DNA of 64,000 nt from Gemmatimonadota bacterium (GCA_016713785.1 JADJOM010000001.1:841816-905815), one strand, 5' to 3'. Shown: positions 2,540-63,997, numbered from the stretch's first letter. Notes: generated by a model not told the origin, from the sequence alone. Program-made: numbers and translations.

Positions 2540-3277
2540 TCAGAGCATCAGGTGCGCCAGCTGCACCCCGGCCGGCGCCCCGCCGCTGGAGCCCGCCGGC
2601 TCCATGGTGAGCGCGGCCCCCATCACGTGCCGGGCATTGGGCGGCATCGGCAGGGTCAGGAAGGCGGGCGTCCGGCCGTCCGAGGGCACGGTGACGCTCC
2701 GGACCATCCCCGACTCGGTGATGAACCAGAACTGGCAGGTCTCGCCGGCGGGCGGCACCGGGAGCCCGTAGACCACGACGTTCCACCGATGGGTCCGCTC
2801 GTCCGCGAAGATCAGCAGCCCGCCCTGCCGGCCGTCCATCGCGATGCTCGCGTGGCGCACCATCGCGGCACCCCGGATGATGCCCAGCGTGTCGCGCACC
2901 ATCGCCAGCTCCTCCGCCAGGCGGGCCCGTTCGCCGGCCAGCTGGGTCTCGAAGGCACGGGTGGTCGCGAGCGCCCAGAACCAGGCACCCGCAGCCAGCA
3001 CCAGCGAGGCGGCGAGCGCCGCGGGCACCCACCACCGGGGCGCCCCCCGCCGTGCCCCGAGCGCGCCGGCCACCAGCCGCTGGTTGAGCCCGGGCCGCGG
3101 GGCCGCGGGCGGGAGCCCCATCGGCAGCCAGGCCAGGTCCCCTTCCAGCTGCTCCACCGCCTCGCGGCACTCGGCGCAGCCGGCCAGGTGCTCGTGGTAG
3201 GCGCGTTCCTCGTCGGGCGCGAGGGCCCGGGCCACGAACGCGGCGCGCTGCTCGACAAACCATGCATGCGGGTTCAT
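2540..3277 (-). CDS. anti-sigma factor, zf-HC2 N-terminus plus RskA-like periplasmic domain
   Basis: Start set at ATG 3277 (MNPHAWF), which overlaps the sigma gene's TGA (ATGA). The longer track ORF (to 3682) is the sigma gene read out of frame. HLAGCAECREAVEQL zinc-finger motif, one TM (WWVPAALAASLVLAAGAWFWAL), C-terminal RskA-like region. Confidence 0.85.
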   Translation of the reverse strand: MNPHAWFVEQRAAFVARALAPDEERAYHEHLAGCAECREAVEQLEGDLAWLPMGLPPAAPRPGLNQRLVAGALGARRGAPRWWVPAALAASLVLAAGAWFWALATTRAFETQLAGERARLAEELAMVRDTLGIIRGAAMVRHASIAMDGRQGGLLIFADERTHRWNVVVYGLPVPPAGETCQFWFITESGMVRSVTVPSDGRTPAFLTLPMPPNARHVMGAALTMEPAGSSGGAPAGVQLAHLML

Positions 3278-3921
3278 ACGACCCAATCCCTGATCGAGGC
3301 CAGCCCGGCGCGCAGCTTGTCGAAGGCAAGCCGCAGCCGGGTCTTCACGGTACCGAGCGGAACGCCGAGGCGTCCCGCGATCTCCGAATGGGTGAGCCCT
3401 TCGAAGTAGGCCAGCTGGACCGCCTCGCGCTGCTCCGGCGGCAGGGCCGCCAGCGCGTGGTGGACGGCGGTGTGCACGTGCCAGCCCGGGGCCGCGGATT
3501 CGTCCGGCTCCGTCGCGGCCACGCTCCCCGTACCCAGGGCGCCGTGCGCCTCCAGCCGCCGGACCTTCTCCACCTGGCGTCGTCGCGCGCGCAAGCGATC
3601 GACGGCGCGATTGCGCGTGATGCGCAGCAGCCACGGCACCAGCCGCCCGCTCGCGGCATCGAACAGGTCGATCCGGCGCCACGCGATGGTGAACGTCTCC
3701 TGCACGACCTCCTCCGCCTCGTCCCGGTCGGTGAGCATCGCCTCGGATACGGCCAGCAACCAGGGCGTGACCAGATCGACCAGCTCCACCAGGGCCCGTT
3801 CGTCACGGGCCCGGAGGCCGGCGAGCAGGCCACGCTCCCGCTCCGCGGCCAGCAGGCGCGGACCGGAAGACTCATCCCGTGGGGACGACCGTCGGAAATC
3901 GGGCACGGCCAAGAATGGCAC
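3274..3921 (-). CDS. ECF (sigma-70 family) RNA polymerase sigma factor
   Basis: Region 2 (EAEEVVQETFTIAWRRIDLFD, LVPWLLRITRNRAVDRLR). Region 4 (LPPEQREAVQLAYFEGLTHSEIAGRLGVPLGTVKTRLRLA). GTG start at 3921. Translationally coupled to the anti-sigma gene. Confidence 0.9.
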   Translation of the reverse strand: MPFLAVPDFRRSSPRDESSGPRLLAAERERGLLAGLRARDERALVELVDLVTPWLLAVSEAMLTDRDEAEEVVQETFTIAWRRIDLFDAASGRLVPWLLRITRNRAVDRLRARRRQVEKVRRLEAHGALGTGSVAATEPDESAAPGWHVHTAVHHALAALPPEQREAVQLAYFEGLTHSEIAGRLGVPLGTVKTRLRLAFDKLRAGLASIRDWVV

Positions 3922-3972
3922 CCCGGCCGTCCCGGGCGCCAGAGCCGGAACGCAACGCGCCCCGCTGCAGGC

Positions 3973-3996
3973 GGGACGATCCCGGGGGATCGTCCC
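3973..3996 (-). terminator. perfect GC-rich inverted repeat (GGGACGATCCC-gg-GGGATCGTCCC) downstream of the TonB-receptor/lipoprotein genes
   Basis: Read directly: 11-nt arms at 3973-3983 and 3986-3996, between the lipoprotein stop (4040) and the sigma start (3921). No U-tract. Could instead be a protein-binding palindrome. Confidence 0.35.
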
Positions 3997-4039
3997 TGTC
4001 CCTGCAACGAGGCGCGCGGGCGGCCGGATCTCCCGGCGG

Positions 4040-4465
4040 CTACTGGATCAGGAACGCCAGCGAGAAGGTGTGCTCATCGGCCAGCGCGTCATGCCCGTAT
4101 CCGATGGCGACGGTGCCCGTGTCGCCGGCGGTGGCGGTGACCGCGACCCCATGCCGGAAGTGGTGCGCGGCATCCATCGTGGCGGTGAGTCCCGCCGCGG
4201 GGGTGAAGGTGAGCAGGCTGAAGTGCTCGTCCTCCGCCACGTCGAGGTTCTCGTCGGACTGGTTGTAGAACGTCACCCGGACGCTGTCAGTGCCGCCGGT
4301 GGTCAGGCGGAGCGTGTCATCGGTGACGAGGGTCCCATTCACGGCGACCTCGAACCGGACCGGGGTGTGGTCCTCGGCGGCCGGCTCGTTGCTGTCGCTG
4401 CACGCCGCAAGGACGGCGCCGACGGCGAGGAGGGCTAGGCGGGGAAGGCGGTGGGGCATCGACAT
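4040..4465 (-). CDS. hypothetical lipoprotein (His-containing, beta-rich)
   Basis: Lipobox LAVGAVLAAC-S. Located 19 nt downstream of the TonB-dependent receptor on the same strand. No family recognised. Confidence 0.6.
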   Translation of the reverse strand: MSMPHRLPRLALLAVGAVLAACSDSNEPAAEDHTPVRFEVAVNGTLVTDDTLRLTTGGTDSVRVTFYNQSDENLDVAEDEHFSLLTFTPAAGLTATMDAAHHFRHGVAVTATAGDTGTVAIGYGHDALADEHTFSLAFLIQ

Positions 4466-4483: not shown

Positions 4484-6541
4484 TCAGGATCCAGCGAGGG
4501 GAAGGCGCAGCGCGGCCCGGAGGGTCCGCGGCGCGCCGGGGTTGATGAAGCCGGACGCGCGGATCTCCGGGTACCGCGCGTTGAACAGGTTCTGCAGGTC
4601 GAGGTCGAGCGTGCCGAGGCGGCGCAGCCGGAGCGACGCGCCGATGTCGGAGATGGCATACGGGCGGGTCCGTACCCCCGGCTCGCCGATCGGGGTGAAG
4701 GGCCCGGTCCACCGGAGCTGCGCCCGGCCCTCGACGGTCGCGGTGGCCTGCAGGGTGAGCTCCGCGCGGCCGTGGTAGCGGGCGACGCCCGGCACCCTGG
4801 CGCCCGGGGTGAGCGGGACGTCATGGAAGCTGGGGCGCGGCGGCGCCACCAGGCTCCCGGGGGTGACCAGCGTCCTGGCGGATTCGCCGGTCGCGCCGGT
4901 GATCCTGGCATCGTTGAACGTGCCCTCCACCGCCAGCCGGACCCGCGGGGTGATGGCCACGCCGATGGCTCCCGAGATCCCGCGACGCCGGCTGGTCCCG
5001 GCGTCGGAGAGCTGCAGGGAGACGGGATCGAGGATGCGCTCATTCCGCGCGTTGGTCTGGAACAGGGAGAGCTGCCCGGAGACGCGCTCGGCGGTCACCT
5101 GGAGCCCGAGCTCACCGGACCAGGCCGTGACCAGCGGCTGCTTGGGATCGGAGATCGTGCCGATGGCGCTGCGGAACCCGCGGCTGGCGGTGGCCACGGC
5201 GCTCCACGGCCCGCCGAGCAGCAGCCGGGCCCCCACCTTGGGGGAGACGGCTCCCTGCGTCCGGGAGTGGAACGGATCACCGGGAATCGCCTGGTCGCGG
5301 ACGCGCACGTGCAGCAGGTCGGCGCGCAGGCCCAGGTCGTACTGCAGCCGGCCGAACACGAATCCGCGCCACCGGGCATAGGCCCCGCCCTGCCGGAACC
5401 CGCCGTCGTTGAGCTGGCGGGTCTCGACCCGGTCCCGCCGCACGGTCCCGTAGAGCTGGTAGTCGTCCCAATCCGCGCGGCCGTCGAGGCCCAGCGCCAG
5501 GTCGCCCGCGCCCGCCGGGGCCCGCCAGCTGCCGGCGAAGCCCACCGCAGCGCGGCGGTCCCGTTCCTCCTGCTGCGCCACCACGCCATCCTCGGCGATG
5601 GACAGGAACACCGTGGACCGGACGCCCTGGGCCCAGCCCTGGAGGTCGAGCTGGGTGCCGTTGGCGAGCGGGTGGAGCAGGGTGCCCTGCAGCACCACCC
5701 GCCCGCCGGACCCGCCGTCGGTGCGGTCGGCGGCGCGGGTCAGGCGATGCGCGTTGTAGTCTGCCACCGACAGGAAACCGGGTGAGTCCCACCCCGCCCC
5801 GTAGGCGGCCAGGCCGCCCTCGAGCCGGGTGCGGCTCCCGAGCCGCCGCCAGCCGCGCAGCAGGACATTGCCGAGCCAGCTGGCGCTGTTGTCCCGCCAG
5901 CCCCCTTCCCGTCGGGCATCCACCGCCACCAGGCTCCCGCCGCTGGCCCCCCGCCGCCCGGTGCGGAACCACCCCGCGGCCTCCCCGGCGCTGGACCCGC
6001 CGATCGACGCCGCGCTGCCGGTGGCGTCGACCATCGTGTGCACCTCCACGGCTCCCGCAAAGGCGAAGTTCCCGTAGAGCGGACTCGCGCTGCCATGGAT
6101 CACCCGGAGCCCGCCCACCGCCGCCGCCGAGAGGATGCTCCAGTCGGCGTAGCCTTCGACGTGTCCGTGCAGCGGCAGGTTCATGGGGACCCCGTCGAGG
6201 ACGAGCAGCACGTCCGAGGAGTGGTCGGAGGTGAAGCCGCGTATCACCACGTCCGACGCCCAGCCCGGCCCCTGTCCCTGCTCGTGCACCTCGAGGCCGG
6301 CGGCGCGCCGCACCAGGTCATAGGCATTGGCCGCCTGTTGCTTCTGCACCACCGCGCCGGGCACCGACACCACCAGCTCGGGGGGCGGCACGGCACGGAT
6401 CCGCTCCGTGGTCACCTCGAGCGTCTCGAGGACCACGGGCACGGTGTCCCGCGCCTGCCCGGCGAGCGGGGTGGCGGCGAGGACGAGGACGAGCAGCGCC
6501 CCGGCCCGGAGGACCGGCGCGCCAGGCACCAGCGGGGCCAT
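4484..6541 (-). CDS. TonB-dependent outer-membrane receptor
   Basis: Signal peptide. Plug-domain motifs (LETLEVTTER, DLVRRAAGLEV, VVIRGF, VLLVLDGVPMN, PLYGNFAFAGAVEVHT). Long Gly/aromatic-rich beta-barrel region. 685 aa. Confidence 0.9.
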   Translation of the reverse strand: MAPLVPGAPVLRAGALLVLVLAATPLAGQARDTVPVVLETLEVTTERIRAVPPPELVVSVPGAVVQKQQAANAYDLVRRAAGLEVHEQGQGPGWASDVVIRGFTSDHSSDVLLVLDGVPMNLPLHGHVEGYADWSILSAAAVGGLRVIHGSASPLYGNFAFAGAVEVHTMVDATGSAASIGGSSAGEAAGWFRTGRRGASGGSLVAVDARREGGWRDNSASWLGNVLLRGWRRLGSRTRLEGGLAAYGAGWDSPGFLSVADYNAHRLTRAADRTDGGSGGRVVLQGTLLHPLANGTQLDLQGWAQGVRSTVFLSIAEDGVVAQQEERDRRAAVGFAGSWRAPAGAGDLALGLDGRADWDDYQLYGTVRRDRVETRQLNDGGFRQGGAYARWRGFVFGRLQYDLGLRADLLHVRVRDQAIPGDPFHSRTQGAVSPKVGARLLLGGPWSAVATASRGFRSAIGTISDPKQPLVTAWSGELGLQVTAERVSGQLSLFQTNARNERILDPVSLQLSDAGTSRRRGISGAIGVAITPRVRLAVEGTFNDARITGATGESARTLVTPGSLVAPPRPSFHDVPLTPGARVPGVARYHGRAELTLQATATVEGRAQLRWTGPFTPIGEPGVRTRPYAISDIGASLRLRRLGTLDLDLQNLFNARYPEIRASGFINPGAPRTLRAALRLPLAGS

Positions 6542-21981: not shown

Positions 21982-21984
21982 CCG

Positions 21985-22488
21985 ATGAGCCAGGTACCGA
22001 TCGAAGAGCTGTTCGCCCAGTTCCACCAGCCGCTCGTGCGGATGCTGTATCGCCGCACGGGCGACCAGGACCGGGCCGAGGACCTCGCGGCGGAGGTGTT
22101 CGCCCGCGCCCTCGCCTCCCCACCGGACAATCCGCGCCCCTGGCTGTTCGCGGTGGCGCTCAACCTGGTGCGGGACGATGGGCGCCGGGCGGTGCGCCAG
22201 GGACGGCGGCTGCAGCTGCTCAAGGGGGAGAGCGCGACCAGCGCCAGCCCCGCGGACGAGGACTACGAACGGACCCAGAAGACCCGGGCCGTCCAGGCCG
22301 CCCTGGCCGAGATGCGGGACCTCGATCGCGAGGTGCTGCTGCTCAAGGCCGAGGGCTTTGACTACGACGAGATCGCGGCCGCCACCGGCCTCGCCAAGGG
22401 CGCGATCGGCACCACGATCTGCCGCGCCCGCAAGCGGCTGGTGGAACTGGTCCGCGCGCAGGAGAAGGATCGCCATGTCGCATCTTGA
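21985..22488 (+). CDS. ECF RNA polymerase sigma factor
   Basis: ATG 3 nt after the VIT-vWA stop. Region 2 (DRAEDLAAEVFARAL, PWLFAVALNLVRD). Region 4 (REVLLLKAEGFDYDEIAAATGLAKGAIGTTICRARKRL). Confidence 0.85.
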   Translation: MSQVPIEELFAQFHQPLVRMLYRRTGDQDRAEDLAAEVFARALASPPDNPRPWLFAVALNLVRDDGRRAVRQGRRLQLLKGESATSASPADEDYERTQKTRAVQAALAEMRDLDREVLLLKAEGFDYDEIAAATGLAKGAIGTTICRARKRLVELVRAQEKDRHVAS

Positions 22489-44126: not shown

Positions 44127-45416
44127 CTAGTCGTACCGAAACGGTACAGGCGGCGGCCCGTCCGGTGCGGCTGTCGAGTCACTGCGCGGATCCCCGGCGG
44201 CCGGCAGCGGCACCCGTGGCACCGACCCGACCCGGGGGAGGTCGAGCAGGTGTCGGGCGCTCGCTTCCCATCCGTGGTGGCGGGTCGCTACGGCCCGGGC
44301 GTTGGCGCCGAGCCGCTGCCGCAGTGCGTAATCGCGTCGCAGCCGGGACAGGGCCGTGGCGAGCGCCCAGGCATCCACCGCCGGGACCGCGAACCCGGTC
44401 AGTTCATGCTCGACCAGGTAACGGCCCGGTCCGACCTGCCGCGCCACGACAGGGCGCCCGGCGGCCATCGCCTCATAGACCTCGAGGGGCCAGCCGGCGT
44501 CCACCGGATCGGCCGGCGGGGTGACCACCACGTCCATCGCCGCCAGCCAGCCGGGCACCTCACACGACGGGACGGCGCCGGCGAAGTACGCCCGGTCCGC
44601 CAGGCCCCACTCCGCCAGCACCGTCTCCAGCCGCTCCCGTTCCGGGCCGCCGCCGACCAGCAGGAGCTGGCAGTCATCGTGGAACCGGGCGAGGCTGGCG
44701 AACGCCCGCAGCAGGACGGGCAGCGCTTCGGCCTCTCCGAGCGGTCCGGCGTAGCCGATGGTGAAGCTTCCGGGCGGGGCGCACCACGCCGGGCAGGGCT
44801 GCGGAGTGAACCGTTCCGGCTCGATGGCGTGGCGCACCACCCGGACCCGGTCGGGCGGGATATTGAACGACCGCAGGTAGGCCGCCACCGCGGGCGAGGC
44901 CGCGACCAGGGTCCCGGCCGCCGCGAAGGCCCGGTACGCCACGCGAATGCCGGCATGCCCCTCGAGCACCCCCAGGCGACGTCCCTCGAGTTCCACCAGC
45001 GGGGCATCGACTTCGAGGATGCTCGGGAGCCCGGCGCCCGCCGCCCAGTCCATGGCGGCGTAGCTCCAGAGGGAGTAGCGCTCGTAGACCAGGTCGAAGG
45101 GCCCGGCAGCGTCCAGCGCGGCGCGCAGCTCGCCGTTGACCGACAGGGCGCGCCAGACCGGCGGCAAGCGTCGGGCGGGCCGGCCGGCCGACAGGGCATG
45201 CACCGGGATGTCGGCGAGCCCCACCGGGCGCTCCCGCCCGGGCCGGATCGTGAACACCTCGACGGCGTGGCCCAGCGCGCGCAGGGTGCGGAGGAACGCC
45301 TGGGCGCGGGCAGCGACCCGCGATCGGCCGAAGAGCGGCTGGTCCCGATCCACGCTGACATACGCGATCCTGAGCGGCCCTCGCGCCGGGACGGCGCGAC
45401 CGACTGGCAACTCCAT
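44127..45416 (-). CDS. glycosyltransferase, GT4 (GT-B) family
   Basis: N-terminal LRIAYVSVD...AQAFLRTLRALGHAVEVF. C-terminal EGWPLEVYEAMAAGRPVVA, resembling the E-x7-E motif region. 429 aa. Confidence 0.85.
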   Translation of the reverse strand: MELPVGRAVPARGPLRIAYVSVDRDQPLFGRSRVAARAQAFLRTLRALGHAVEVFTIRPGRERPVGLADIPVHALSAGRPARRLPPVWRALSVNGELRAALDAAGPFDLVYERYSLWSYAAMDWAAGAGLPSILEVDAPLVELEGRRLGVLEGHAGIRVAYRAFAAAGTLVAASPAVAAYLRSFNIPPDRVRVVRHAIEPERFTPQPCPAWCAPPGSFTIGYAGPLGEAEALPVLLRAFASLARFHDDCQLLLVGGGPERERLETVLAEWGLADRAYFAGAVPSCEVPGWLAAMDVVVTPPADPVDAGWPLEVYEAMAAGRPVVARQVGPGRYLVEHELTGFAVPAVDAWALATALSRLRRDYALRQRLGANARAVATRHHGWEASARHLLDLPRVGSVPRVPLPAAGDPRSDSTAAPDGPPPVPFRYD

Positions 45417-45673
45417 GCTACCTCCACCGTAGGGTCAGCCCGCCCGGGACGCCGTGTCCTGTCGCGGCACCGCCGGGCCTGCCTGTGCAAGGGGCGGGCG
45501 CGGCCTGCGCCTCCCGGCGATCTTCCGGAGCTTCATGTCCAGCAACAACTTGCAGGCCGGGGACCGAGGCCCTGCCCGGGTCCGGCCCCCCACGATTCGC
45601 TCCATCATGGATCGGGGCGGTACAATTCCCGCGCGGCGGCCGCGCCGACACGGTCGATCAACGATTGCCAGGG

Positions 45674-46228
45674 ATGGTGCGTATCTCCGCTGAGTCCGAC
45701 GCCGCCCTCATCGCCAGGGCCCAGGGTGGTGACCGTGACGCCTTCGGCGTGCTGGTCGGCCGCTACGGGCCCATGGTCCGGCGCCTGACCCGGGCGGTCC
45801 TCCACCATGGTGCCGACGCGGACGATGCCGCCCAGGATGCGTTCTTCTCCGCCTGGCAGGCCATCGATCGGTTCGATCCCGCGCAGACCCTCGGGCCCTG
45901 GCTGGCCCGCATCGCGGTGAACGCGGCGCGGGACCTGGTCCGGCGTCGCCGGGTCCGGGTCACCGAGCCGGTGCCGATGGACCGCGCCGACCTGGGTCCG
46001 CTGCCGGACCGGGCCGCCGAGGCCAGGGTGCAGCGGGGGCGGCTGGCGGCGGCGCTCGCATCCCTGCCGGAGCGGCAACGGCTGGTGGTGGTGCTGTTCG
46101 AGGTCGAGGGATACGCCCACGGCGAGATCGCCGGGCTGTTCGGCATCCCCGAGGGCACGGTGCGGTCGGAGCTGTTCCACGCCAAGCGAAAACTGCGTGC
46201 GGCGCTTGACGGACTGAGAGAGGAGTGA
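45674..46228 (+). CDS. ECF RNA polymerase sigma factor
   Basis: ATG 45674 (MVRISAESDAALIARAQGGDRDAF). Region 2 DDAAQDAFFSAWQAIDRFD and PWLARIAVNAARDL. Region 4 LPERQRLVVVLFEVEGYAHGEIAGLFGIPEGTVRSELFHAKRKL. Confidence 0.85.
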   Translation: MVRISAESDAALIARAQGGDRDAFGVLVGRYGPMVRRLTRAVLHHGADADDAAQDAFFSAWQAIDRFDPAQTLGPWLARIAVNAARDLVRRRRVRVTEPVPMDRADLGPLPDRAAEARVQRGRLAAALASLPERQRLVVVLFEVEGYAHGEIAGLFGIPEGTVRSELFHAKRKLRAALDGLREE

Positions 46229-46554
46229 CCATGCAGGAATCGCCCTTCCCCCTGGATCGTGACCCGGCCCTCGAGCGCGGGCTGCGCGACCTGCTTGGCG
46301 ACGGGGCCGACGCGGGGTTCGCCGCGCGCGTCGTCGCGGGGCTCCCGGCCCGGAACTCCCTCCTCCACGTGCTGGCCGGCTGGGCCCGGCCGGGGATCGC
46401 CGCCGCGCTGCTCCTGGCCACCGCGCTCGGGGTGTGGCTCACCCTGCGAGCCGAGGCGGGTGCGGGGGTGAGCCCGCTGGCGGAGGTGGGTGCCTCCGGC
46501 CGGCCCCAGGACAGCGACGCCCTCATGGGCGTGGCGCTCGGCGGGGGGCGCTGA
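46225..46554 (+). CDS. small single-TM protein in the anti-sigma position (no zf-HC2 motif)
   Basis: GTG 46225 overlaps the sigma TGA (ATG 46231 is an alternative). TM GIAAALLLATALGVWLTL. Same position and size as 57140..57520. Confidence 0.5.
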   Translation: MTMQESPFPLDRDPALERGLRDLLGDGADAGFAARVVAGLPARNSLLHVLAGWARPGIAAALLLATALGVWLTLRAEAGAGVSPLAEVGASGRPQDSDALMGVALGGGR

Positions 46555-46565
46555 GCGTGGCGGCC

Positions 46566-46964
46566 ATGCGCACCGATACCTGGAAGGCCGTGGTGCTGCT
46601 CCTGCTGGCCACCTTCGCGGGGGCGGCGGTGGGCAGTGTGGTCACCAGCCGGATGCACGGCGAGCACCGCGACGGCGCGCATGGCCACCGCGGCAGCGAC
46701 TGGTACATGGACCTGCTCAAGGCGGAACTGCAGCTCACGGCCGCGCAACAGGACAGCGTGCGGCAGGTGCTGGACCATCACCGCGGCGCGATGGACTCCC
46801 TCTGGGCCGATGTCGGCGCCCGGATGGACGCGATGCGCCAGGCCATCCGCGCCGACGTCCGGACACTGCTGACCCCCGCGCAGCGTGAGCGGTACGCTGC
46901 GCTCACCGCCCGGCTGGACGCCGAGCGGCGTGATTCGACCTCCAGGGATTCGACCAACCGATGA
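46566..46964 (+). CDS. membrane-anchored periplasmic LTXXQ-motif protein (Spy/CpxP/ZraP-like, 'periplasmic heavy-metal sensor' type)
   Basis: ATG 46566 (MRTDTWKAVVLLLLATFAGAAVGSVV anchor). His-rich HGEHRDGAHGHRG. Two L-T-x-x-Q motifs (LQLTAAQQD, LLTPAQRERY) in predicted helices. Confidence 0.7.
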   Translation: MRTDTWKAVVLLLLATFAGAAVGSVVTSRMHGEHRDGAHGHRGSDWYMDLLKAELQLTAAQQDSVRQVLDHHRGAMDSLWADVGARMDAMRQAIRADVRTLLTPAQRERYAALTARLDAERRDSTSRDSTNR

Positions 46965-55896: not shown

Positions 55897-56404
55897 CTAG
55901 ATCCCGCGGTGACCGTGCGGAGGGCCCTCGCCGCGCCGGTGGTCCCGCATGTCGTGACGCCGCTCCGCCCGCCACGCCTGGTACCTGGCGTACTGCTCCT
56001 TGGAGAGCAGCCCCTTCAGCGACTCGTCGAAGGCCCGCTGCTTCTGCTCCAGACCGGTGACCAGCGCCCGGGGACCGTCCCCCCGGGACGGCGTGGAGTC
56101 GCGCTCGGCACGATCGCGCCCGCCACGCATCGACGCACGGAACTGCTGCAGGCTGTCGCGGGTGACACGGGTGGCGGCCATCAGGTTGTCATAGAGCACG
56201 CCGTACTGCGTGGCCTGCTCCTCGGTGATGCCGGTGAGGTCGCGGAACTCCCCGGGGGCGGGCGGGCCCTCGACCACCACCGGGTCGGGGGCGCGGGCGC
56301 GGGGGCGGCCCACCCTGGGCCTCGTGCGCAAGCGGCGCGGCCAGCAGGCCGCAGGCAAAGAAGAGTGTTGGCGCGAGGCGCGCCGGCGACGTCAGGCCGA
56401 ACAT
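55897..56404 (-). pseudogene. LTXXQ/Spy-like periplasmic protein gene interrupted by a +1 frameshift (or an assembly indel)
   Basis: Signal peptide MFGLTSPARLAPTLFFACGLLAAPLAHEAQGG starts at ATG 56404, in the frame of track ORF 56189..56470. The LTXXQ body (DLTGITEEQ..., LLSKEQYARYQAW) is in the frame of ORF 55897..56358. The frames must switch at ~56285-56315, where two G5/C5 runs occur (56287-56291, 56301-56305). Confidence 0.5.
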
Positions 56405-56494
56405 GGAATCCTCCAGTGTAGGTGCGTGGGAGGTACGCCGGCTCCGGCCGGCCCGTTGGCCGCGCACCATCCCAACACTCCGGGCCGGGCCGAC

Positions 56495-56521
56495 GTAACG
56501 GAGATGTTCCAGAGCACGTAC
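56495..56521 (+). promoter_or_regulatory. candidate ECF-type promoter (GTAAC-N17-CGTAC) upstream of the sigma gene
   Basis: GTAAC at 56495-56499, 17-nt spacer, CGTAC at 56517-56521, 17 nt before ATG 56539. Resembles the generic ECF GGAAC...CGT architecture. Confidence 0.3.
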
Positions 56522-56538: not shown

Positions 56539-57153
56539 ATGACCGCTGTCCACAAGCCGCAGGACCCGATGACCCCAGTCGCGCCGGGCCCCGAGGAGGA
56601 CGCCAGCCTGATCCGGCTGGCCCAGGGCGGCGACCGCGAGGCGTACGACCGCCTGGTCCGGCGTTACCTCCCGCGCGCCTATACGGTGGCGTTCCGGGTC
56701 TCGGGCAACCGGCAGGACGCCGAGGACCTGGTCCAGGACGGCTTCATGTCGGCGTACCGGTCCATCGACCGCTTCGAGGTCGGGCGGCCCTTCGGCCCCT
56801 GGCTGTACCGGATCATCACGAACGCCGCCGTGAGTCACCTGCGACGCGAGGGCCGGAGACCCACCGAGTCGCTGGCCGAGCATGCCAGTGCCGGCGGTCC
56901 CTCCCCCCTGGGGGAGACCGCGCGCGGGGAGGTCCGGGAGCAGTTCCGCCGCACCCTGGCGGAGCTCCCGGAGAAGCAGCGACTGGCGGTGCAGTGGCAC
57001 GACGTGGACGGCTTCACCGCGGAAGAGATCGGGGAGAGCCTGGGCGTGCCGTCGGGGACGGTGCGCTGGTACCTGCACCAGGCCCGGCAGACCCTGCGCA
57101 AGGCGCTCGCGCCGTGGCACGGGACACTGGAGGAGAGCAATGACGAACACTGA
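56539..57153 (+). CDS. ECF RNA polymerase sigma factor
   Basis: ATG 56539 (MTAVHKPQ...). Region 2 QDAEDLVQDGFMSAYRSIDRFE and PWLYRIITNAAVSHLR. Region 4 LPEKQRLAVQWHDVDGFTAEEIGESLGVPSGTVRWYLHQARQTL. Confidence 0.85.
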   Translation: MTAVHKPQDPMTPVAPGPEEDASLIRLAQGGDREAYDRLVRRYLPRAYTVAFRVSGNRQDAEDLVQDGFMSAYRSIDRFEVGRPFGPWLYRIITNAAVSHLRREGRRPTESLAEHASAGGPSPLGETARGEVREQFRRTLAELPEKQRLAVQWHDVDGFTAEEIGESLGVPSGTVRWYLHQARQTLRKALAPWHGTLEESNDEH

Positions 57154-57520
57154 TCCGCGGGAGGCCGCGCTGCGGGCCGAACTCCTCGCCACCGCCCCCA
57201 CGCCCACGCTCGGTGCCGCGGACCAGGAGCGCCTGGCACGCGGCATCGCCGCCCGGATCGCGCGGGAGCCGGCGCCCGCCCCCCCGCGCACCTGGCGGGA
57301 CGACCTCATCGACCTCGGTCGCGTGGTGGCCCCACTGGCCATTGCCGCGGGGCTCGCAGCGGTCTTCCTGCTCGGCTCGGGGCGGCTCCCCGCCTCGACC
57401 AGCACGTCGGCCGAGACCGCCTTCGCCGGCGTCCTGGCAGGCACCAGCGGCTCGGCCTCGCTGCTCGAGTCCGCCGTGGCCGAGTCGGCGGGATGGCTGA
57501 TCGTGGAAGGAGAACAGTAG
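57140..57520 (+). CDS. small single-TM protein in the anti-sigma position (no zf-HC2 motif)
   Basis: ATG 57140 overlaps the sigma 3' end by 14 nt. TM VVAPLAIAAGLAAVFLLG. Same architecture as 46225..46554. Confidence 0.5.
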   Translation: MTNTDPREAALRAELLATAPTPTLGAADQERLARGIAARIAREPAPAPPRTWRDDLIDLGRVVAPLAIAAGLAAVFLLGSGRLPASTSTSAETAFAGVLAGTSGSASLLESAVAESAGWLIVEGEQ

Positions 57521-57521
57521 G

Positions 57522-57977
57522 ATGCGACAGAAACTCATCGGCGCCGCCGTCCTGGCGGCCCTCTTCCTCAGCGGGGTCGCCGTGGGCATGGCAACCGACC
57601 GCTACATGCACCGGCCCCCGATGCGCCGGGGTCCCGGTGGTGAGCACGGCGGCCCGGTCCCGTCGCCGGAGATGCGCGACCGGATGGCGGGCATGATCGT
57701 GGACCGGCTCCGGCGGGAACTCGACCTCTCCGGCGACCAGGAGCGACAGCTCCGCGAGATGCTCCCGCGCCACATCGCCGCCCTGGACAGCGTCCGTGCC
57801 GCCATTGAGCCCCAGGTGGAGGCGGTGGCTGCCCGCTCGGCGGCGGAGGTGGCCGCCATCCTCACCCCGGCGCAGCGCCAGGTGTGGGAGCAACGCTGGA
57901 AGCGGATGGGGATTCCGGCCGGGCCGCCGGGGATGCCCCCCGGCGGAGACCGGGGACACGACGGTCCCCGGCCCTGA
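57522..57977 (+). CDS. membrane-anchored periplasmic LTXXQ-motif protein (Spy/CpxP/ZraP-like)
   Basis: ATG 57522, 1 nt after the upstream stop. Anchor LIGAAVLAALFLSGVAVGM. LDLSGDQERQL and ILTPAQRQVW motifs. Gly/Pro-rich C-terminal tail. Confidence 0.7.
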   Translation: MRQKLIGAAVLAALFLSGVAVGMATDRYMHRPPMRRGPGGEHGGPVPSPEMRDRMAGMIVDRLRRELDLSGDQERQLREMLPRHIAALDSVRAAIEPQVEAVAARSAAEVAAILTPAQRQVWEQRWKRMGIPAGPPGMPPGGDRGHDGPRP

Positions 57978-58051: not shown

Positions 58052-58315
58052 ATGGGGTTCATCTACTTCGCGGTGAGCGCCGCCGCCACGCTCTTCGGCT
58101 TTCTCGTCGCGCGCGACTTCGTTCGGCGGCGGCTGCGCTTCGTGGACGCGGTGCGGTCGCCCGCGGCGCCGTGGCTCGCCGGGCTCGGCGCGGCGCTGAT
58201 CGCGTGGCCGATTGCCGCCCTGCCCCTCGTCACCACCGCCACCACCACCCTGTTCGGCATCGGCGCGGGGCTCGGCACGGCCAGCGGCGTCAAGGCGCTC
58301 CGCCGCGGCGACTGA
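58052..58315 (+). CDS. small hypothetical membrane protein
   Basis: ATG 58052 (MGFIYFAVSAAATLFGFLVA). Three hydrophobic segments. 87 aa. Confidence 0.45.
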   Translation: MGFIYFAVSAAATLFGFLVARDFVRRRLRFVDAVRSPAAPWLAGLGAALIAWPIAALPLVTTATTTLFGIGAGLGTASGVKALRRGD

Positions 58316-58358
58316 TCTCCGGGCCGGGGGTGGCCGCCCCCGTTATACTTGCACCACC

Positions 58359-58610
58359 ATGCCGACCATCGCCTGCGGTCGCTGCGGCCAGTCCCGCGAC
58401 CAGATGCCCTTCCGCCCGTTCCAGAACGACCTCGGCCTGCGGGTCTTCCAGCACATCTGCAATCCCTGCTGGGGCGATTGGCTCAAGCTGCAGCAGCAGC
58501 TGATCAACCACTACGCGCTGAACGTGCGCGATGCCCAGGCCAAGGAATTCCTCTTCAAGCAGATGGAACAGTTCCTCTTCGTCACGCCGATGGAGCCACC
58601 CCCGGCCTGA
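58359..58610 (+). CDS. yggX: Fe(II)-trafficking / oxidative-damage protection protein YggX
   Basis: ATG 58359. W.DWLKLQQQLINHYALN......KEFLFKQMEQFLF matches the YggX pattern (W..W...Q..LINE..LN...L...M..FLF). 83 aa. Confidence 0.85.
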   Translation: MPTIACGRCGQSRDQMPFRPFQNDLGLRVFQHICNPCWGDWLKLQQQLINHYALNVRDAQAKEFLFKQMEQFLFVTPMEPPPA

Positions 58611-58641
58611 GCCGCCCCACCGCCTCCACTGCCCTTACCAC

Positions 58642-59607
58642 CTACCAGGAATACCCCAGCCGGAAGTTCGCGTCGATCGCCGGGCCGCTGGGCCAGAGGT
58701 CCTCGCTCATCCCGAAGCGGAACTCCCGCCCGCTCCTGCCACGGATCACCCACCCGAAGTCGATGGTCAGGTCCCAGCGATCCAGCTGCCGGGCCACCGC
58801 GCCTTCGTAGTAGGGACTGTGCAGGTACAGGTTCGCGAAGCTCCAGAGGCTTCCCACGGTGCGCCACCGGGCGCCGCTGGTGCCGAGGAAAAAGAGCCGC
58901 TGCTGGATGGCGCGGAGGTGGCCGTCCCGCGGGGTGTACCCGAGGTTGATCGAGCCCTCGTACACCAGGCGCGGCGCCAGGGGCACCCGGAAGGTGTTGA
59001 GGAGGCTCAGGGAGGGCTGGCCCCGCCGGAAGCCCGCCCCGGCCGTGCTGGTGGGCAGGGTCAGGGAGAGCACGCTCTGGGCCCGGGTGCCGTGCCTAAG
59101 CCCGAGCCCGATCCGGGCGTCACCCAGGGCGGCACCTCGGGCGCGGAACCTGACCGTCCGGCCGTCGGGGAACTGGTAGCGGTAGCCGAAGTCATTGGGG
59201 CTGCGGGCATCCCGCTCCGGGTAGTAGATGCCGAAGATGCCGTGATACCAGTCGAGGAATCCATCCAGGACGCCGGGGTAGGCTCCTCCCAGCGGCAGCT
59301 CGGCCACGAGGAAGCTCCGGTCCCCGAGATCGTGCGTGGCACTCAGGTTCACCCGCAGCACCTCGGCGTCCAGCATGTACGAGGTGTCGGCCACCGAGGT
59401 CCGCAGGCCGAACTCCAGCATGCTGGCGTAGTCCACCCCCACCTGGAAGCGCCAGCCCGCCGTGGGAGCCACCAGCGGCTGGAAGTACAGGCCGCTGCGG
59501 GACTCCGCGGCGGGATTCAGGGAGTGGTAGATGGGCAGCGACTGGGCCGCGCACGGCGCGGCCGCCAGCAGGGCCAGGAGGGGGGCGAACCGAGGGGAAG
59601 CGGCCAT
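58642..59607 (-). CDS. predicted outer-membrane beta-barrel protein (DUF3187-like, tentative)
   Basis: Signal peptide MAASPRFAPLLALLAAAPCAAQS. Alternating aromatic/Gly strands. C-terminal ...ANFRLGYSW. Confidence 0.7.
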   Translation of the reverse strand: MAASPRFAPLLALLAAAPCAAQSLPIYHSLNPAAESRSGLYFQPLVAPTAGWRFQVGVDYASMLEFGLRTSVADTSYMLDAEVLRVNLSATHDLGDRSFLVAELPLGGAYPGVLDGFLDWYHGIFGIYYPERDARSPNDFGYRYQFPDGRTVRFRARGAALGDARIGLGLRHGTRAQSVLSLTLPTSTAGAGFRRGQPSLSLLNTFRVPLAPRLVYEGSINLGYTPRDGHLRAIQQRLFFLGTSGARWRTVGSLWSFANLYLHSPYYEGAVARQLDRWDLTIDFGWVIRGRSGREFRFGMSEDLWPSGPAIDANFRLGYSW

Positions 59608-59718
59608 GGGATCCGAGGCAGGGGCGACCGGGGGCGCGGGGCGGCGACCCGAGCCAACAAAGGGCGCCGGACGGTGCGTAACAGCAGGAAGCTAATCCAC
59701 CACCATCGAGGTTTCGGC

Positions 59719-62700
59719 ATGCGGCGGCTCGGGATTCTCCTTTTCTGCCTCCTCCCCCTGTTTGCCGGGCGGGTCGCCCCGGTGGCCGCCCAGGTCGGGG
59801 TCACCACCGACATCCTCACGGGCACCGTGACCGACACCTCCGGCACGCCGCTCACTGGCGCCACCATCGAGGCGGTCTCCCTCGAAACCGGGCATACCCG
59901 GAGCGCCAGCACGGATGGCCGCGGCCGGTACCGCATCCTCTTCCCGGACGGGGGCGGGCGGTACCAGCTGTTCGTGAAGCAGATCGGGCACGCGCCAGCC
60001 CGGCGACAGCTGGAGCGGGCCGGCGACGACGACCGCCTCTTCGCGGACTTCCGGCTGGTCCCGCAGGCGGTGGCGCTGGAGGAGCTGGTGGTCTCCGGCC
60101 GGCGGCAGAATTTCAATGACCCCCGGCCGACGCCGGGCTCCACCGAGACGGTGCAGTCCCCCGACCGGCTGGCGCGACTCCCGCTCGACGCCGGCGACCT
60201 CAACGCCATCGCCGCGCTGGCCGCCGGGGTGGTGAGCATCTCCGGGACCGATTCCACGGCCGCGTCGTTTTCCGTGGCCGGCCAGCGCAGCAGCGCCAAC
60301 AGCACCACGCTCGACGGCCTGACCTTCGGCGCCTCGAGCATCCCGCAGGACGCGGTGCGGAGCACCCGGGTGGTGACCAACACCTACGACGTGTCGCGGG
60401 GCCAGTTCAGCGGCGGCCTGATCGCGTCCACCACCCGGAGCGGCACGCGGATCTTCCAGGGCACCGTGAACGGCAGCCTGCGCGACCCGGCGCTCGCGGT
60501 GATCCCCGACAGCGTCACCAACCAGCCCCAGGCCCAGCAGCAGCTCTCGTTCGGGGTGGGCGGCCCGCTCATCACCAACCGGCTCTTCGGCTTCGGGGCC
60601 GGGCAGGTGCGGCACCGCGGCAACGACCTGATCACGCTGCTCACCCTGGCGGACGGCGGCGCCGAACGATACGGCGTGGCGCAGGACTCGCTCGACCGCT
60701 ACACCACGATCCTCGGCGGGCTCAACGTCCCCTTCACCACCGGGGCCGTGCCCGACGACCGCTCGGGCACCGACTGGTCGGGCATCGGGCGGCTGGACCT
60801 GCTGCTGGGCGAGCGGCACACGCTCACCTTCCGCGGCGACTGGCGCCAGAGCAGCGATGCCCCGGCGCGGCTGGCGCCGCTGGCGCCCCCGGCCAGCGGC
60901 GGCCGCACCTCGAGCCGCAGCGGCGGCGGGATGCTGCAGCTCAGCTCGCGGTTCGGGCAGAGCCTGCTCAACGAGGCGAAGGTCTACCTCTCCGGCAGCC
61001 GCAACCGCGGCGCACCGTACCTGCAGCTCCCCGCGGGGCGGGTACAGCTCAGCTCCGCGCTCGACGACGGCACCCTCAGCACCTCGAGCCTCTCCTTCGG
61101 CGGCAACCCGGGCTTTCCCCAGCGCGGCCACAGCAGCGCCTTCGAGGCCACCAACGAGCTGAGCTGGCTCTCCGGGGAAGCGAGCCACCGGGTGAAGCTG
61201 GGGCTGTTCTACACCACGGCCCGCACCACCCAGGAGGTCGCCAGCAACCAGCTCGGCACCTTCACCTTCGAGACGCTGGCCGACCTCGAGGCGGGGCGTC
61301 CGTCGCTCTTCACCCGGACCCTCGGCGCCGACCAGCGCACCGGCCGCAGTGCCACCGCCGCCGCCTACCTGGGTGACACCTGGCGCCTGAACCAGGCCTG
61401 GCAGCTCACCTTCGGCGTGCGCGGCGAGCACTCCTGGTTCGGGGATGCACCCGCGTACAACGCGACGGTGGACTCCCTCTTCGGCCTGCGCACCGACCGG
61501 CTGCCACGGGAGACCCACCTGAGCCCGCGGCTCGGGTTCACCTGGACGCCCCCCTCGACGGATGGGCCGCCCGGCTGGATCGTGCGGGGCGGCTTCGGGG
61601 AATTCCGCAGCCCGGTGCCCGCCCAGCTGGCGGTGGCGGCCCAGGCCGCGAGCGGCACGAGCAACGGCCAGACCCAGCTGGTGTGCGCCGGCGCCGCGGC
61701 GCCCATCCCCGACTGGACGGCGATGGCCGCCGACCCGGCGGCGATCCCGACCGCCTGCGTGGGTGGCCTCCCCGGGGGGCCCCGGGACGACCTCCCGTCG
61801 ATCACCGCCTTTGCCCCCGGGTTCACGGCGCCACGGGTGTGGCGCGGCTCCTTCGGCGTGCAGCGACGGGCCGGGCTCCTGACCTATGGCGTGGACCTGA
61901 GCGCCGGCGTCGGCGTGAGCCAGCAGGGCTTCCGCGACCGGAACATCGGGGCCAGCCAGTTCGCGCTGGCCGGCGAGGGCGGCCGCCAGGTGTTCGTGCC
62001 GGCCAGCGCGTTCGACACGGCGAGCGGGGTGACCACGCTGACCGCCTCCCGGCTCGACCCGGGCTTCGGCCAGGTCTTCGCCGCGGTGTCCGACCTGACC
62101 ACCCGGTCGGTGCAGGCGGTGTTCTCCTTCGGCGGCATCATCGGCAAGGGCGTGACCCTCTCCGGGTCCTACACCCTGGCGCACACCACCGACGAGTCGT
62201 CGTCGGGCGACTTCGGCGGCGGGCGCGGCTTTGCCTCGCAGACCGCGGGCCGCCAGCTCTACGCCAGCGGGCGCAGCGTGAGCGACTTCGACCGGCGGCA
62301 TTCGATCGTCACCACGCTGACGGTGCCGGTGGCCCGGGGCTTCGAGATCACCGCGATCGGCCGGGCCTCCTCGGGCACCCCGTACACCCCGGGCGCGGCG
62401 GGCGACCTCAACGGTGACGGCTCGCGCAACGACCGCGCGTTCATCTTCGACCCGGCGACCACCGCGGACCCGGCGCTCGCCGCCGCCATGGACCGGCTGC
62501 TCGCGGCGGCCCCCGCCGGCGCGCGCGACTGCCTGCGCCGCCAGCTGGGGTCCATCGCCGACCGCAACAGCTGCCGGGGCCCGTGGCAGCCGTCGTTCGA
62601 CCTGCAGCTCAACTGGAAGCCCAGCATGCTGGGCCTCGACCAGCGGCTCACCATCTCGCTGCTGACCTCAAACCTGCTGGCGGGGATGGACCAGCTGTTC

Positions 62701-63471
62701 CATGACGACGACCACCTGCACGGCTGGGGGCAGTTCTCGCGGCCCGACCCGACCCTGCTCACGGTCCGCGGCTTCGACGCCGCCACCCAGCAGTTCGTCT
62801 ACGACGTGAACGAGCGCTTCGGCGACATCCGCGGCACCCAGACCTTCCGGCAGCCCTTCCAGGTCGGGCTGCAGCTGCGGCTGGCGCTCGGTGGCAGCTC
62901 GCTGTTCGGCGGGGGGCCGGGTGGCTTCGGGGGGCCCGGTGGCCCGGGCGGTCCCGGCGGTCCCGGCGGCCCAGGCGGCTTCGGTGGCCCGCCGCCGGGC
63001 GGGTTCGGCGGCCCGCCGGCCGGTGGCCCCCCGCCCGAGGCCGCGGCTGGGGCGGCGGGCGCGGGGGCCGCGCCGGCGGCGCAGCCGACCTTCGCGAGCC
63101 GGATCACCCAGGCACTCCGTGACCCGGTCGAGCCGATCATCGCGCTCAACATCGCGCTCCGGCTCACCGACGACCAGCTGGCCAGGCTGCAGGGGCTGAG
63201 CACGGAGTTCGCGGCCCGTCGCGACACGCTTGGCACCGACATCCAGAAGGAGATCGAAGGGATGGGGCGCGACCCGGACCGGGCGGTGCTCTTCTCGATG
63301 ATCCGCAGCCGGATGGAGCACGGGCGGGAGATGTCGCAGGGGATCCTCGACCGCGCCAAGGCGGTGCTGACGGCCGAGCAGTGGGCCCAGCTGCCCGAAG
63401 AGGCCAAGGTCCTGCCCCGCTTCGGCGGGCCCGGGGGCCCAGGGGGGCCGGGCGGTCGGCCGCCGCAGTAG
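59719..63471 (+). CDS. CarboxypepD_reg-domain TonB-dependent-receptor-like giant OM barrel with C-terminal Gly/Pro linker and LTXXQ (Spy-like) domain
   Basis: ATG 59719 (MRRLGILLFCLLPLFAGRVAPVAAQ). GTVTDTSGTPLTGATIEAVSLETG...GRYRILFP (carboxypeptidase-regulatory-like). Plug-like SFSVAGQRSSANSTTLDGLTF. ~900-aa barrel ending ...LRLALGGSSLF (F1063). Then [43 protein letters not shown], then a helical domain with LRLTDDQLARL and VLTAEQWAQL, ending [15 protein letters not shown]. Confidence 0.85.
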   Translation: MRRLGILLFCLLPLFAGRVAPVAAQVGVTTDILTGTVTDTSGTPLTGATIEAVSLETGHTRSASTDGRGRYRILFPDGGGRYQLFVKQIGHAPARRQLERAGDDDRLFADFRLVPQAVALEELVVSGRRQNFNDPRPTPGSTETVQSPDRLARLPLDAGDLNAIAALAAGVVSISGTDSTAASFSVAGQRSSANSTTLDGLTFGASSIPQDAVRSTRVVTNTYDVSRGQFSGGLIASTTRSGTRIFQGTVNGSLRDPALAVIPDSVTNQPQAQQQLSFGVGGPLITNRLFGFGAGQVRHRGNDLITLLTLADGGAERYGVAQDSLDRYTTILGGLNVPFTTGAVPDDRSGTDWSGIGRLDLLLGERHTLTFRGDWRQSSDAPARLAPLAPPASGGRTSSRSGGGMLQLSSRFGQSLLNEAKVYLSGSRNRGAPYLQLPAGRVQLSSALDDGTLSTSSLSFGGNPGFPQRGHSSAFEATNELSWLSGEASHRVKLGLFYTTARTTQEVASNQLGTFTFETLADLEAGRPSLFTRTLGADQRTGRSATAAAYLGDTWRLNQAWQLTFGVRGEHSWFGDAPAYNATVDSLFGLRTDRLPRETHLSPRLGFTWTPPSTDGPPGWIVRGGFGEFRSPVPAQLAVAAQAASGTSNGQTQLVCAGAAAPIPDWTAMAADPAAIPTACVGGLPGGPRDDLPSITAFAPGFTAPRVWRGSFGVQRRAGLLTYGVDLSAGVGVSQQGFRDRNIGASQFALAGEGGRQVFVPASAFDTASGVTTLTASRLDPGFGQVFAAVSDLTTRSVQAVFSFGGIIGKGVTLSGSYTLAHTTDESSSGDFGGGRGFASQTAGRQLYASGRSVSDFDRRHSIVTTLTVPVARGFEITAIGRASSGTPYTPGAAGDLNGDGSRNDRAFIFDPATTADPALAAAMDRLLAAAPAGARDCLRRQLGSIADRNSCRGPWQPSFDLQLNWKPSMLGLDQRLTISLLTSNLLAGMDQLFHDDDHLHGWGQFSRPDPTLLTVRGFDAATQQFVYDVNERFGDIRGTQTFRQPFQVGLQLRLALGGSSLFGGGPGGFGGPGGPGGPGGPGGPGGFGGPPPGGFGGPPAGGPPPEAAAGAAGAGAAPAAQPTFASRITQALRDPVEPIIALNIALRLTDDQLARLQGLSTEFAARRDTLGTDIQKEIEGMGRDPDRAVLFSMIRSRMEHGREMSQGILDRAKAVLTAEQWAQLPEEAKVLPRFGGPGGPGGPGGRPPQ
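62908..63036 (+). repeat. in-frame GGN-CCN microsatellite-like low-complexity tract encoding the (G-G-P/F)n linker
   Basis: Read directly: ggcggggggccgggtggcttcggggggcccggtggcccgggcggtcccggcggtcccggcggcccaggcggcttcggtggc... A shorter copy lies at 63424-63468. Confidence 0.8.
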
Positions 63472-63472
63472 G

Positions 63473-63997
63473 TCAGGCCGGCGTCGGATCCTCCAGCGAC
63501 CGCCAGAGATACCAGGCGGCGCTGGTGCGGTAGGGGCGGAAGCGCTCGCCCAGGCGTTCCAGCCGCGAGCGCGCCCGGACGCGATACAGCCGCTCCGCGG
63601 CGCGCTGGATGCCGCCGTCCCCGACCGGCCAGACGTCCGGCCGCTCAAGCGAGAAGATCAGGAACATCTCGGCGGTCCACACCCCGACGCCCTTCACCTG
63701 CACCAGTCGCTCGATCACCGCCGCATCGGACAGGCGGCCGAGTCCGCGCAGGCCACCCGCCTCGGCGAACCGCGCCAGCTCGCGCACATACGACGCCTTC
63801 GCCCGGGAGAGGCCGGCGCGCCGCAGCCGCCGCAAGTCGGCGCTGGCCAGGGCCGCCGGACGGATCGGGACCAGCTCCGCCAGCCGGGCCAGGATGCTCG
63901 CCGCCGCCTTGCCGGAGATCTGCTGCGACACGATGGCGTCGACCAGGGCCGGGAAGGGAGGCTGGGGCGTGATCGCCGGCGGGCGGTGCCGGGCCAC
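63473..63997 (-). CDS. HhH-GPD DNA glycosylase, AlkA (3-methyladenine glycosylase II)-like; 5' end probably beyond the window
   Basis: LVDAIVSQQISGKAAASI, HhH LVQVKGVGVWTAEMFLIF, catalytic-Asp region DVWPVGDGGIQRA. The ORF is open to within 3 nt of the window end. Confidence 0.8.
   Translation of the reverse strand: MARHRPPAITPQPPFPALVDAIVSQQISGKAAASILARLAELVPIRPAALASADLRRLRRAGLSRAKASYVRELARFAEAGGLRGLGRLSDAAVIERLVQVKGVGVWTAEMFLIFSLERPDVWPVGDGGIQRAAERLYRVRARSRLERLGERFRPYRTSAAWYLWRSLEDPTPA

Follow-up and report, generated by a model that had tools for sequence, protein, structure and literature searches.

The gene described here lies at positions 59719-63471 of a 64 000 nucleotide (nt) stretch of a Gemmatimonadota bacterium genome (GCA_016713785.1, contig JADJOM010000001.1, 841816-905815), and this whole stretch is referred to below as the window. 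The gene is a single open reading frame (ORF) on the plus strand, with 1250 codons and a stop, in agreement with the public gene call, and its product is a predicted Oar-type TonB-dependent transporter in which the beta-barrel is followed, in the same polypeptide, by a disordered tether and a helical domain of the LTXXQ family. Our preferred interpretation, which we put at a probability of about 0.5, is that the gene is induced by an extracytoplasmic function (ECF) sigma factor and that the tethered LTXXQ domain binds clients or partners in the periplasm, at the periplasmic mouth of the channel.

To our knowledge, TonB-dependent transporters have been described with accessory domains at the N-terminus only. 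The original prediction, made from the DNA sequence, knew of no TonB-dependent barrel with a C-terminal domain of this kind, and in a search of the full-text literature no paper was found that connects TonB-dependent transporters with LTXXQ domains or with C-terminal extensions. Databases contain the architecture implicitly, since some members carry both Pfam hits, yet it is undescribed, and its novelty is limited to TonB-dependent transporters.

The ORF runs from an ATG at 59719 to a TAG at 63469-63471, and the identical 1250 amino acid (aa) protein is encoded on three contigs, among them JADJCY010000003.1 of GCA_016702955.1 and one in GCA_016705815.1. Its parts are as follows.

59719-59790 (+): signal peptide, residues 1-24 (MRRLGILLFCLLPLFAGRVAPVAA, then QVG), read from the sequence; the mature N-terminus QVGxTTDI is kept in homologues.
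59815-60036 (+): CarboxypepD_reg N-terminal extension, residues 33-106 (Pfam PF13620, E value 2.4e-15, 57.1 bits, cut-off 32.3).
60076-60099 (+): TonB-box-like motif LEELVVSG, residues 120-127, from homologue N-termini.
60130-60453 (+): plug domain, about residues 138-245 (weak Pfam Plug match, AlphaFold2 and Foldseek).
60454-62892 (+): beta-barrel of the TonB-dependent-transporter type, about residues 246-1058 (PF25183, AlphaFold2 and Foldseek).
62854-62892 (+): last strand of the barrel, PFQVGLQLRLALG, from conservation in homologues.
62893-63081 (+): disordered Gly/Pro/Ala-rich tether, residues 1059-1121, from low model confidence and composition.
63082-63423 (+): helical-hairpin domain of the LTXXQ family, residues 1122-1235, with motifs at 63157-63177 and 63364-63381.
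63424-63471 (+): Gly/Pro/Arg-rich C-terminal end, residues 1236-1250 (15 residues), and stop, from the sequence and homologues.

The class of the barrel is indicated by both profile and structure comparisons. In the Pfam scan, the protein matched OMP_b-brl_4 (PF25183) with an E value of 2.4e-45 (155.7 bits), and the match to Plug (PF07715; residues 138-228, E value 0.0094) was weak, its 16.9 bits falling under the 23.9 cut-off. Between the extension and the plug, the sequence L(E/Q)(E/D)(V/I)(V/T)V(R/A)G was present in the 40 homologue N-termini inspected, and LEELVVSG, the form found here, probably functions as a TonB box. An AlphaFold2 model of residues 126-1250, built from a 75-sequence alignment, had a mean predicted local distance difference test (pLDDT) score of 84.9 and a predicted template-modelling score of 0.82, with most of the barrel above 90. 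The 50 fold matches listed by Foldseek were all TonB-dependent transporters, with YddB the best (E value 2.7e-27), followed by PirA, PfeA, FusA, Cir and others (1e-27 to 1e-25 for YddB, PirA, PfeA and FusA), and the model aligned over about 1000 columns with full plug-plus-barrel transporter structures. No solved structure was matched to the protein by sequence alone. The model thus predicts a plugged barrel of the 22-strand, TonB-dependent-transporter class. The signalling domain STN (PF07660) was not detected in the protein by the Pfam scan at E values up to 1.

The last strand of the barrel is internal to the protein. It has the form PFQxGxQxRxxxG (residues 1046-1058), is conserved among homologues and corresponds to strand E922-933 of the model (protein residues 1047-1058). 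The original prediction had placed the barrel end at GGSSLF (residue 1063), and this needs to be corrected: the last strand ends at G1058, and GSSLF (1059-1063) is variable among homologues and belongs to the linker, so that F1063 is not the terminal aromatic residue of the barrel. The C-terminus of barrels of this class faces the periplasm, and for this reason the tail would be located in the periplasm, as the modelled fold implies. The periplasmic topology that had been considered self-consistent is therefore retained, with an internal last strand and the tail on what would be the periplasmic side of the barrel.

The tether is 63 residues long (29 G, 15 P, 11 A and 4 F) and consists of a Gly/Pro/Phe-rich run followed by an Ala-rich run, as had been predicted. 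Its pLDDT is below 50 at model residues 936-995. Linkers in homologues range from 18 to 73 residues, with a median of 38 and 45 % Gly, and their length shifts in frame among close relatives; the window protein and a 95 %-identical orthologue differ by one GGP unit. Imperfect 9 and 27 bp repeats are found in the DNA of the tether. Column occupancy in the alignment is 58 % for the linker versus 99 % for the tail, and the mean pairwise identity of the tail is 0.38, indicating that the tail is a sequence under constraint.

The helical module of about 115 aa with two LTXXQ motifs that had been proposed was recovered at residues 1122-1235, with LRLTDDQ at 1147-1153 and VLTAEQ at 1216-1221, as was the second Gly/Pro-rich stretch that ends the protein. 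When the full protein was scanned, the LTXXQ profile (PF07813) gave a weak match (residues 1145-1225, E value 0.015). PF07813 also matched 31 of 32 orthologous tails, the best with an E value of 8.6e-10, and many homologues carry a precomputed PF07813 annotation. It is from this Pfam profile that the predicted LTXXQ-family membership of the tail derives. In the alignment of the 32 tails, LTxxQWxxxP has four invariant residues (L, Q, W and P). The first motif, LxLTxxQ, is nearly invariant (L30, L32 and Q36 at least 90 % conserved). In the second motif, L100 and Q104 do not vary and T101 is conserved to at least 90 %. A PNP/PDP turn and an FxxR upstream of it also show almost no variation. Modelled alone, the tail folded with a pLDDT of 92.8 into a long hairpin (helices 34-64 and 71-99) with short flanking helices, and within the full model the helical domain was also confident (pLDDT 85-97, model residues 1000-1105). 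A profile search of Protein Data Bank (PDB) sequences with the tail found only the LTXXQ protein STV (5ihf; E value 0.0024).

The tail profile was also used to search 1.84 billion representative proteins. There were 1119 hits, 269 of them with E values below 1e-10, and most were fragments of fusions. The full-length hits were all Oar-type proteins of 1209-1403 residues. The largest, P0155 (1403 aa), has two tandem tail modules after the barrel, and fragments P0142, P0125 and P0130 represent further variants with tandem modules; two or three modules were seen across the variants. Two modules also occur in secreted proteins that are free of a barrel (P0231, P0232, P0234 and P0260). In the free proteins, a module is built from a Gly/Arg-rich segment, which precedes each module, an NP-helix and the LTXXQ hairpin, and the modules are usually in tandem. 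Nearly all members of the family, and the free LTXXQ-like proteins encoded nearby, end in a Gly/Arg/Pro-rich sequence, often ...RRP(P)xx. The fusion probably arose by capture of a free periplasmic LTXXQ module. Spy, CpxP and CnrX are dimers and LTXXQ proteins are periplasmic chaperones. By analogy, the tail module probably works as a dimer, and the two-module variant fits such a need.

The fusion is conserved across species. A search of 5.8 billion proteins found more than 1100 relatives, and the best 120 were examined. Nearly all are 1200-1250 residues long and come from metagenome-assembled genomes of Gemmatimonadales or Gemmatimonadota. In 118 of the 120 the last-strand motif is followed by a tail of about 160 residues, and the other two are partial ORFs. 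Genomes, one per species, were also scanned with the full-length alignment; of the 80 best loci, five run into the end of a contig, and 73 of the 75 complete loci have barrel and tail in one frame. With more than 100 homologues and these 73 loci, conservation of the tail at the amino acid level is far beyond chance. The original proposal of a 1250 aa protein with barrel, tether and tail in one polypeptide is thus borne out by domain scans, AlphaFold2, Foldseek and an ORF conserved across species. The frameshift that the prediction had named as a condition against it is not borne out. The 80 best loci are all from Gemmatimonadota except one bin (L018/L088, CAVRAZ010000001.1), which is labelled 'uncultured Gammaproteobacteria' and carries a typical Gemmatimonadota-type fused gene, and this label is probably wrong. 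In L087 (3493-6701), a locus on a 4.03 Mb contig, three ORFs of 250, 177 and 566 aa take the place of one intact orthologue, reflecting either long-read frameshift errors or a pseudogene. A second homologue search, aimed at carriers among cultured Gemmatimonas, returned mostly fragments, and an isolate carrier was not established by it.

The 111 bp upstream region of the transporter gene contains a promoter-like motif, and similar motifs precede other genes in the window.

59654-59682 (+): ECF-type promoter-like motif CCAAC-N18-CGTAAC, 37 nt before the transporter ATG, from orthologue conservation.
56472-56497 (+): promoter-like motif CCAAC-N17-CGTA before the ECF sigma operon, from the motif scan.
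56434-56459 (-): promoter-like motif before the ATG of a divergent LTXXQ/DUF4890-like gene, from the motif scan.

The sequence CAAC-N17/18-CGTAAC occurs at only two sites in the window, before the transporter gene and before the ECF sigma gene (expected 0.04). For the orthologues, the 220 nt before the signal-peptide region were examined at 81 loci, with the reverse strand and shuffled sequences as controls. A relaxed form, AAC-N16-18-CGT[AC], was found at 51 of the 81 loci, compared to 6 on the reverse strand and a mean of 4.1 (maximum 9) in the shuffles, and its background was 7 % of windows of sequence. The tight form, YYAAC-N16-18-CGTA, was found at 35 of the 81, with 0 on the reverse strand and a mean of 0.36 in the shuffles. 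The spacer is 17 nt in 38 of 57 instances, and its sequence is not conserved. As the tight form is present at 1.98 per kb upstream of the gene and at 0.016 per kb elsewhere in the loci (127-fold), it is not a general promoter. Four tight sites were found in the window (expected 0.65), namely one each ahead of the transporter gene, of the ECF operon and of the divergent LTXXQ-like gene, and a fourth (45658-45683) that overlaps the start codon of a second ECF sigma gene and is probably not functional. A scan for sigma-70 promoters and terminators gave nothing meaningful. Promoters with AAC (-35) and CGT (-10) are a hallmark of ECF sigma factors, and the occurrence of such a motif throughout the family, specific in both strand and position, therefore points to ECF-dependent transcription of the transporter gene family. 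The upstream sequences further suggest that the transporter gene, the ECF operon and the divergent free LTXXQ-like gene form one regulon.

Genes on the left side of the transporter gene include the following.

55897-56470 (-): divergent secreted LTXXQ/DUF4890-like gene (Pfam); the window copy is frameshifted.
56539-57153 (+): ECF sigma factor (Pfam Sigma70_r2/r4, 1e-23).
57140-57520 (+): putative single-pass anti-sigma factor, from the gene call.
57522-57977 (+): membrane-anchored LTXXQ/Metal_resist-like protein (Pfam Metal_resist 0.001, LTXXQ 0.004).

The three genes at 56539-57977 make up a CnrYXH-like triad that is a candidate regulator of the transporter gene. The window copy of the divergent gene has a 4 nt insertion in a Pro/Gly-rich tract that causes the frameshift, and the gene is intact in L001 (167 aa) and L002 (+33 nt, 178 aa); indels in low-complexity GC tracts thus do occur in near-identical assemblies. 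Between the triad and the transporter gene, at 58052-59607, are genes for an 87 aa membrane protein, a YggX-like Fe(2+)-trafficking protein (Iron_traffic) and a DUF3187 protein. Seven loci of the window's clade have this block in synteny with the transporter gene, including loci without the ECF triad. In another sub-clade (L003 7359-8000, L088 7350-7997 and L090 7368-7997), the gene directly upstream is translationally coupled and encodes a secreted protein of about 210 aa that is Gly-rich in its middle part and matches no Pfam family, and genes for an Nramp protein and a DtxR-like repressor are downstream of the transporter gene. On the right side, a convergent gene for an HhH-GPD glycosylase ends at 63473, one base past the transporter stop, and there is no room for a terminator between them.

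Long stop-free frames are common in the window, as its G+C content is about 73 %. The transporter frame itself is open from 58531, with 396 stop-free codons before the true ATG (58531-59718, +) that lie over the DUF3187 gene on the opposite strand, and an 869-codon antisense ORF (59692-62301, -) lies inside the transporter gene. This upstream extension and the antisense ORF are spurious and typical of DNA with 73 % G+C.

In the interpretation that we prefer, the transporter gene would be transcribed by an ECF sigma factor, here probably that of the neighbouring CnrYXH-like triad, and the transporter would be one product of a regulon that senses the envelope and from which free LTXXQ proteins are made as well. 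The tail would be held in the periplasm, roughly 5-20 nm from the mouth of the barrel, where it may bind unfolded or extended clients without ATP, as the free proteins Spy, CpxP and ZraP do, and probably as a dimer. Client binding would in this way be concentrated where cargo leaves the TonB-gated channel or, in an Oar-like export mode, enters it.

Several observations weigh against this interpretation. The window tail alone scores 22.4 bits, below the PF07813 gathering cut-off of 24.3. Foldseek matches of the tail to STV and CnrX in the PDB were non-significant (E value >0.1, TM score 0.42-0.56), and this is because helical hairpins are poorly discriminated. In an hhalign comparison with Escherichia coli Spy, using a query sequence checked against 3oeo, the probability was 2.3 % and only the first motif was aligned. 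The description of the tail as Spy-like consequently holds at the level of the Pfam family and not for E. coli Spy itself. In two sister species the copy lacks a tail and stops 13-18 residues past the last strand (L054, about 5745-5784, and L056, about 5775-5826), so that the barrel can do without the tail. These are the two complete loci that lack the fusion. They also lack the promoter motif and lie directly behind another coding gene. The motif was defined post hoc from two sites in the window, and only then tested on the orthologues, where 30 of the 81 loci lack even the relaxed form. Among the ECF operons at other loci, that of L087 has only AAAC-N17-CGTT and that of L072 has no such motif. 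Finally, all-against-all clustering of the flanking ORFs from 85 loci revealed no conserved operon partner; the best cluster covered 13 of the 85 loci and reflects sub-clade synteny, and the ten neighbourhoods with long flanks differ from one another.

The proximity of the ECF triad raises the question of trans-envelope signalling, in which the tail would contact, for example by forming heterodimers with, a membrane-anchored LTXXQ/CnrX-like sensor and so report the occupancy of the transporter to the sigma factor. FecA-type transducers belong to the regulon of the sigma factor they control, and the transporter gene and the ECF operon of the window likewise share the ECF-type motif. The tail and the sensor are both from the LTXXQ/Metal_resist superfamily, whose members dimerize, and the flexible tether together with the Gly/Pro stalk of the sensor might bridge much of the periplasm. 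Homologous triads adjoin the transporter gene in the window's clade and in L072, L062 and L087; in L087, the triad and a gene for an LTXXQ lipoprotein-like protein are just upstream of the split orthologue. Against this, of the ten lineages for which long flanks were examined, eight had no triad within 7-8 kb, among them the syntenic close relative P0006. ECF-like ORFs are also dense, with four in the window (among them 3277-4047, -, and 21982-22485, +), and an ECF gene is paired with one for a membrane LTXXQ-like protein a second time at 45374-46961 (+), so that adjacency of this multi-copy module can be due to chance. The tail profile missed the neighbouring proteins (E value >10; 24 % identity, hhalign probability 59 %), and with a median of 38 residues the tether is on the short side for crossing the periplasm. 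We regard signalling as unlikely, and likewise a related reading in which a built-in periplasmic holdase would make the translocation of protein through an Oar-type transporter directional. The coupling to the neighbouring ECF/LTXXQ module that had been envisaged gains indirect support from the shared promoter motif, which indicates co-regulation; the genes are adjacent in a minority of lineages only.

A role directed at the transporter itself is also improbable. Here the tail would be an intramolecular holdase for the barrel precursor of about 1000 residues on its way to the beta-barrel assembly machinery, or else a module for dimerization or anchoring that pairs barrels or gates the access of TonB to the plug. 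LTXXQ proteins in general are periplasmic chaperones and dimers, and the last strand, which resembles a beta-signal, is internal and strongly conserved. Single-module tails would need a partner, and the two-module variant shows that paired modules exist in one protein. These features would suit such a role. Against it, a C-terminal tail is the last part to leave the Sec channel, and barrels without it are found in L054 and L056 and among related Oar-type transporters (PMC6434023).

Very improbable is the hand-off of metal, in which a ZraP/CnrX-like tail would take up a metal that the transporter brings in. CnrX and ZraP, which are metal sensors, belong to the LTXXQ/Metal_resist clan, the Foldseek hits of the tail to CnrX are weak, and the neighbours include metal-related genes, namely the YggX-like Iron_traffic gene in the window's clade and those for Nramp and the DtxR-like repressor in another. 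However, the homologous tails, which have a median isoelectric point of 9.5, contain no Cys and 0.5 % His and have no conserved His, Cys or Met column, and PF13801 touches only one of the 32. Metal binding by the tail was rejected in the absence of conserved ligands.

That an indel in the GGN/CCN tract has joined a barrel gene to a separate LTXXQ gene is next to impossible: the assemblies are from long reads, the divergent gene has an indel in its own Pro/Gly tract and the L087 orthologue is split, but the fusion is present in different species and studies at the loci and in the homologues counted above, the identical protein is encoded on three contigs, neither a signal peptide nor a start codon context precedes the tail and linker length varies in frame between relatives, so that assembly or frameshift fusion is refuted.

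The family is of wider interest because a whole lineage, represented by hundreds of species-level Gemmatimonadota genomes, has a folded LTXXQ domain on a leash past an internal last strand, together with an ECF-type promoter-like motif. If the tail binds clients, no earlier transporter would be known to have a periplasmic chaperone built in, and the finding would bear on how polypeptides are moved by Oar-like transporters. If it signals, evolution would have connected outer-membrane transporters to ECF sigma factors a second time and independently, in a new form of cell-surface signalling with a leashed C-terminal domain in place of the N-terminal STN of the FecA type. Whichever holds, the family offers a natural case of a beta-signal that is internal to a 22-strand barrel protein, and a concrete regulon for study in a phylum that is abundant in soil and activated sludge and poorly studied.

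Among the closest known systems is Oar of Myxococcus xanthus. The Oar subclass of TonB-dependent transporters, which has the CarboxypepD_reg extension, was defined and classified by N-terminal architectures only (PMC6434023). The signal peptide, CarboxypepD_reg extension, plug and large barrel, predicted to be of the 22-strand type, are common to Oar and the Gemmatimonadota family, in which the TonB box is putative. Unlike Oar, whose accessory domains are N-terminal only (PMC6434023), the Gemmatimonadota family adds a C-terminal tether and LTXXQ domain of about 190 residues.

The FecA-FecR/FecI system shares with the Gemmatimonadota one a TonB-dependent transporter with an extra periplasmic domain and an ECF-type promoter and, here, also a nearby pair of ECF sigma and anti-sigma genes. 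It differs in that the Gemmatimonadota protein has no STN and carries its extra, helical domain at the C-terminus, at the end of a long and disordered tether, and in that the linkage of its gene to ECF genes is not conserved. The window triad resembles CnrYXH-type systems, which consist of a sigma factor, a small anti-sigma factor and a helical periplasmic sensor anchored in the membrane, in gene content, with a third protein that matches Metal_resist/LTXXQ, whereas the gene order is different and no metal ligands are evident. What suggests a relation of this triad to the transporter gene is the promoter-like motif they share, and this is the one link between them.

As for the tail, its two LTXXQ motifs, long alpha-helical hairpin, basic isoelectric point and predicted periplasmic location are those of Spy, CpxP, ZraP and STV (PF07813). 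In contrast to these, the Gemmatimonadota domain is tethered to a barrel instead of being free, and has its own N-terminal FxxR...PNP helix and a Gly/Arg/Pro-rich end. Outer-membrane barrels with periplasmic C-terminal domains are known from OmpA/OprF and from the ushers FimD and PapC. There too, a folded domain in the periplasm comes after an internal last strand of the barrel, a topology predicted for the Gemmatimonadota protein, whose barrel differs in being TonB-dependent and plugged and whose appended domain differs in its fold and in its long disordered tether.

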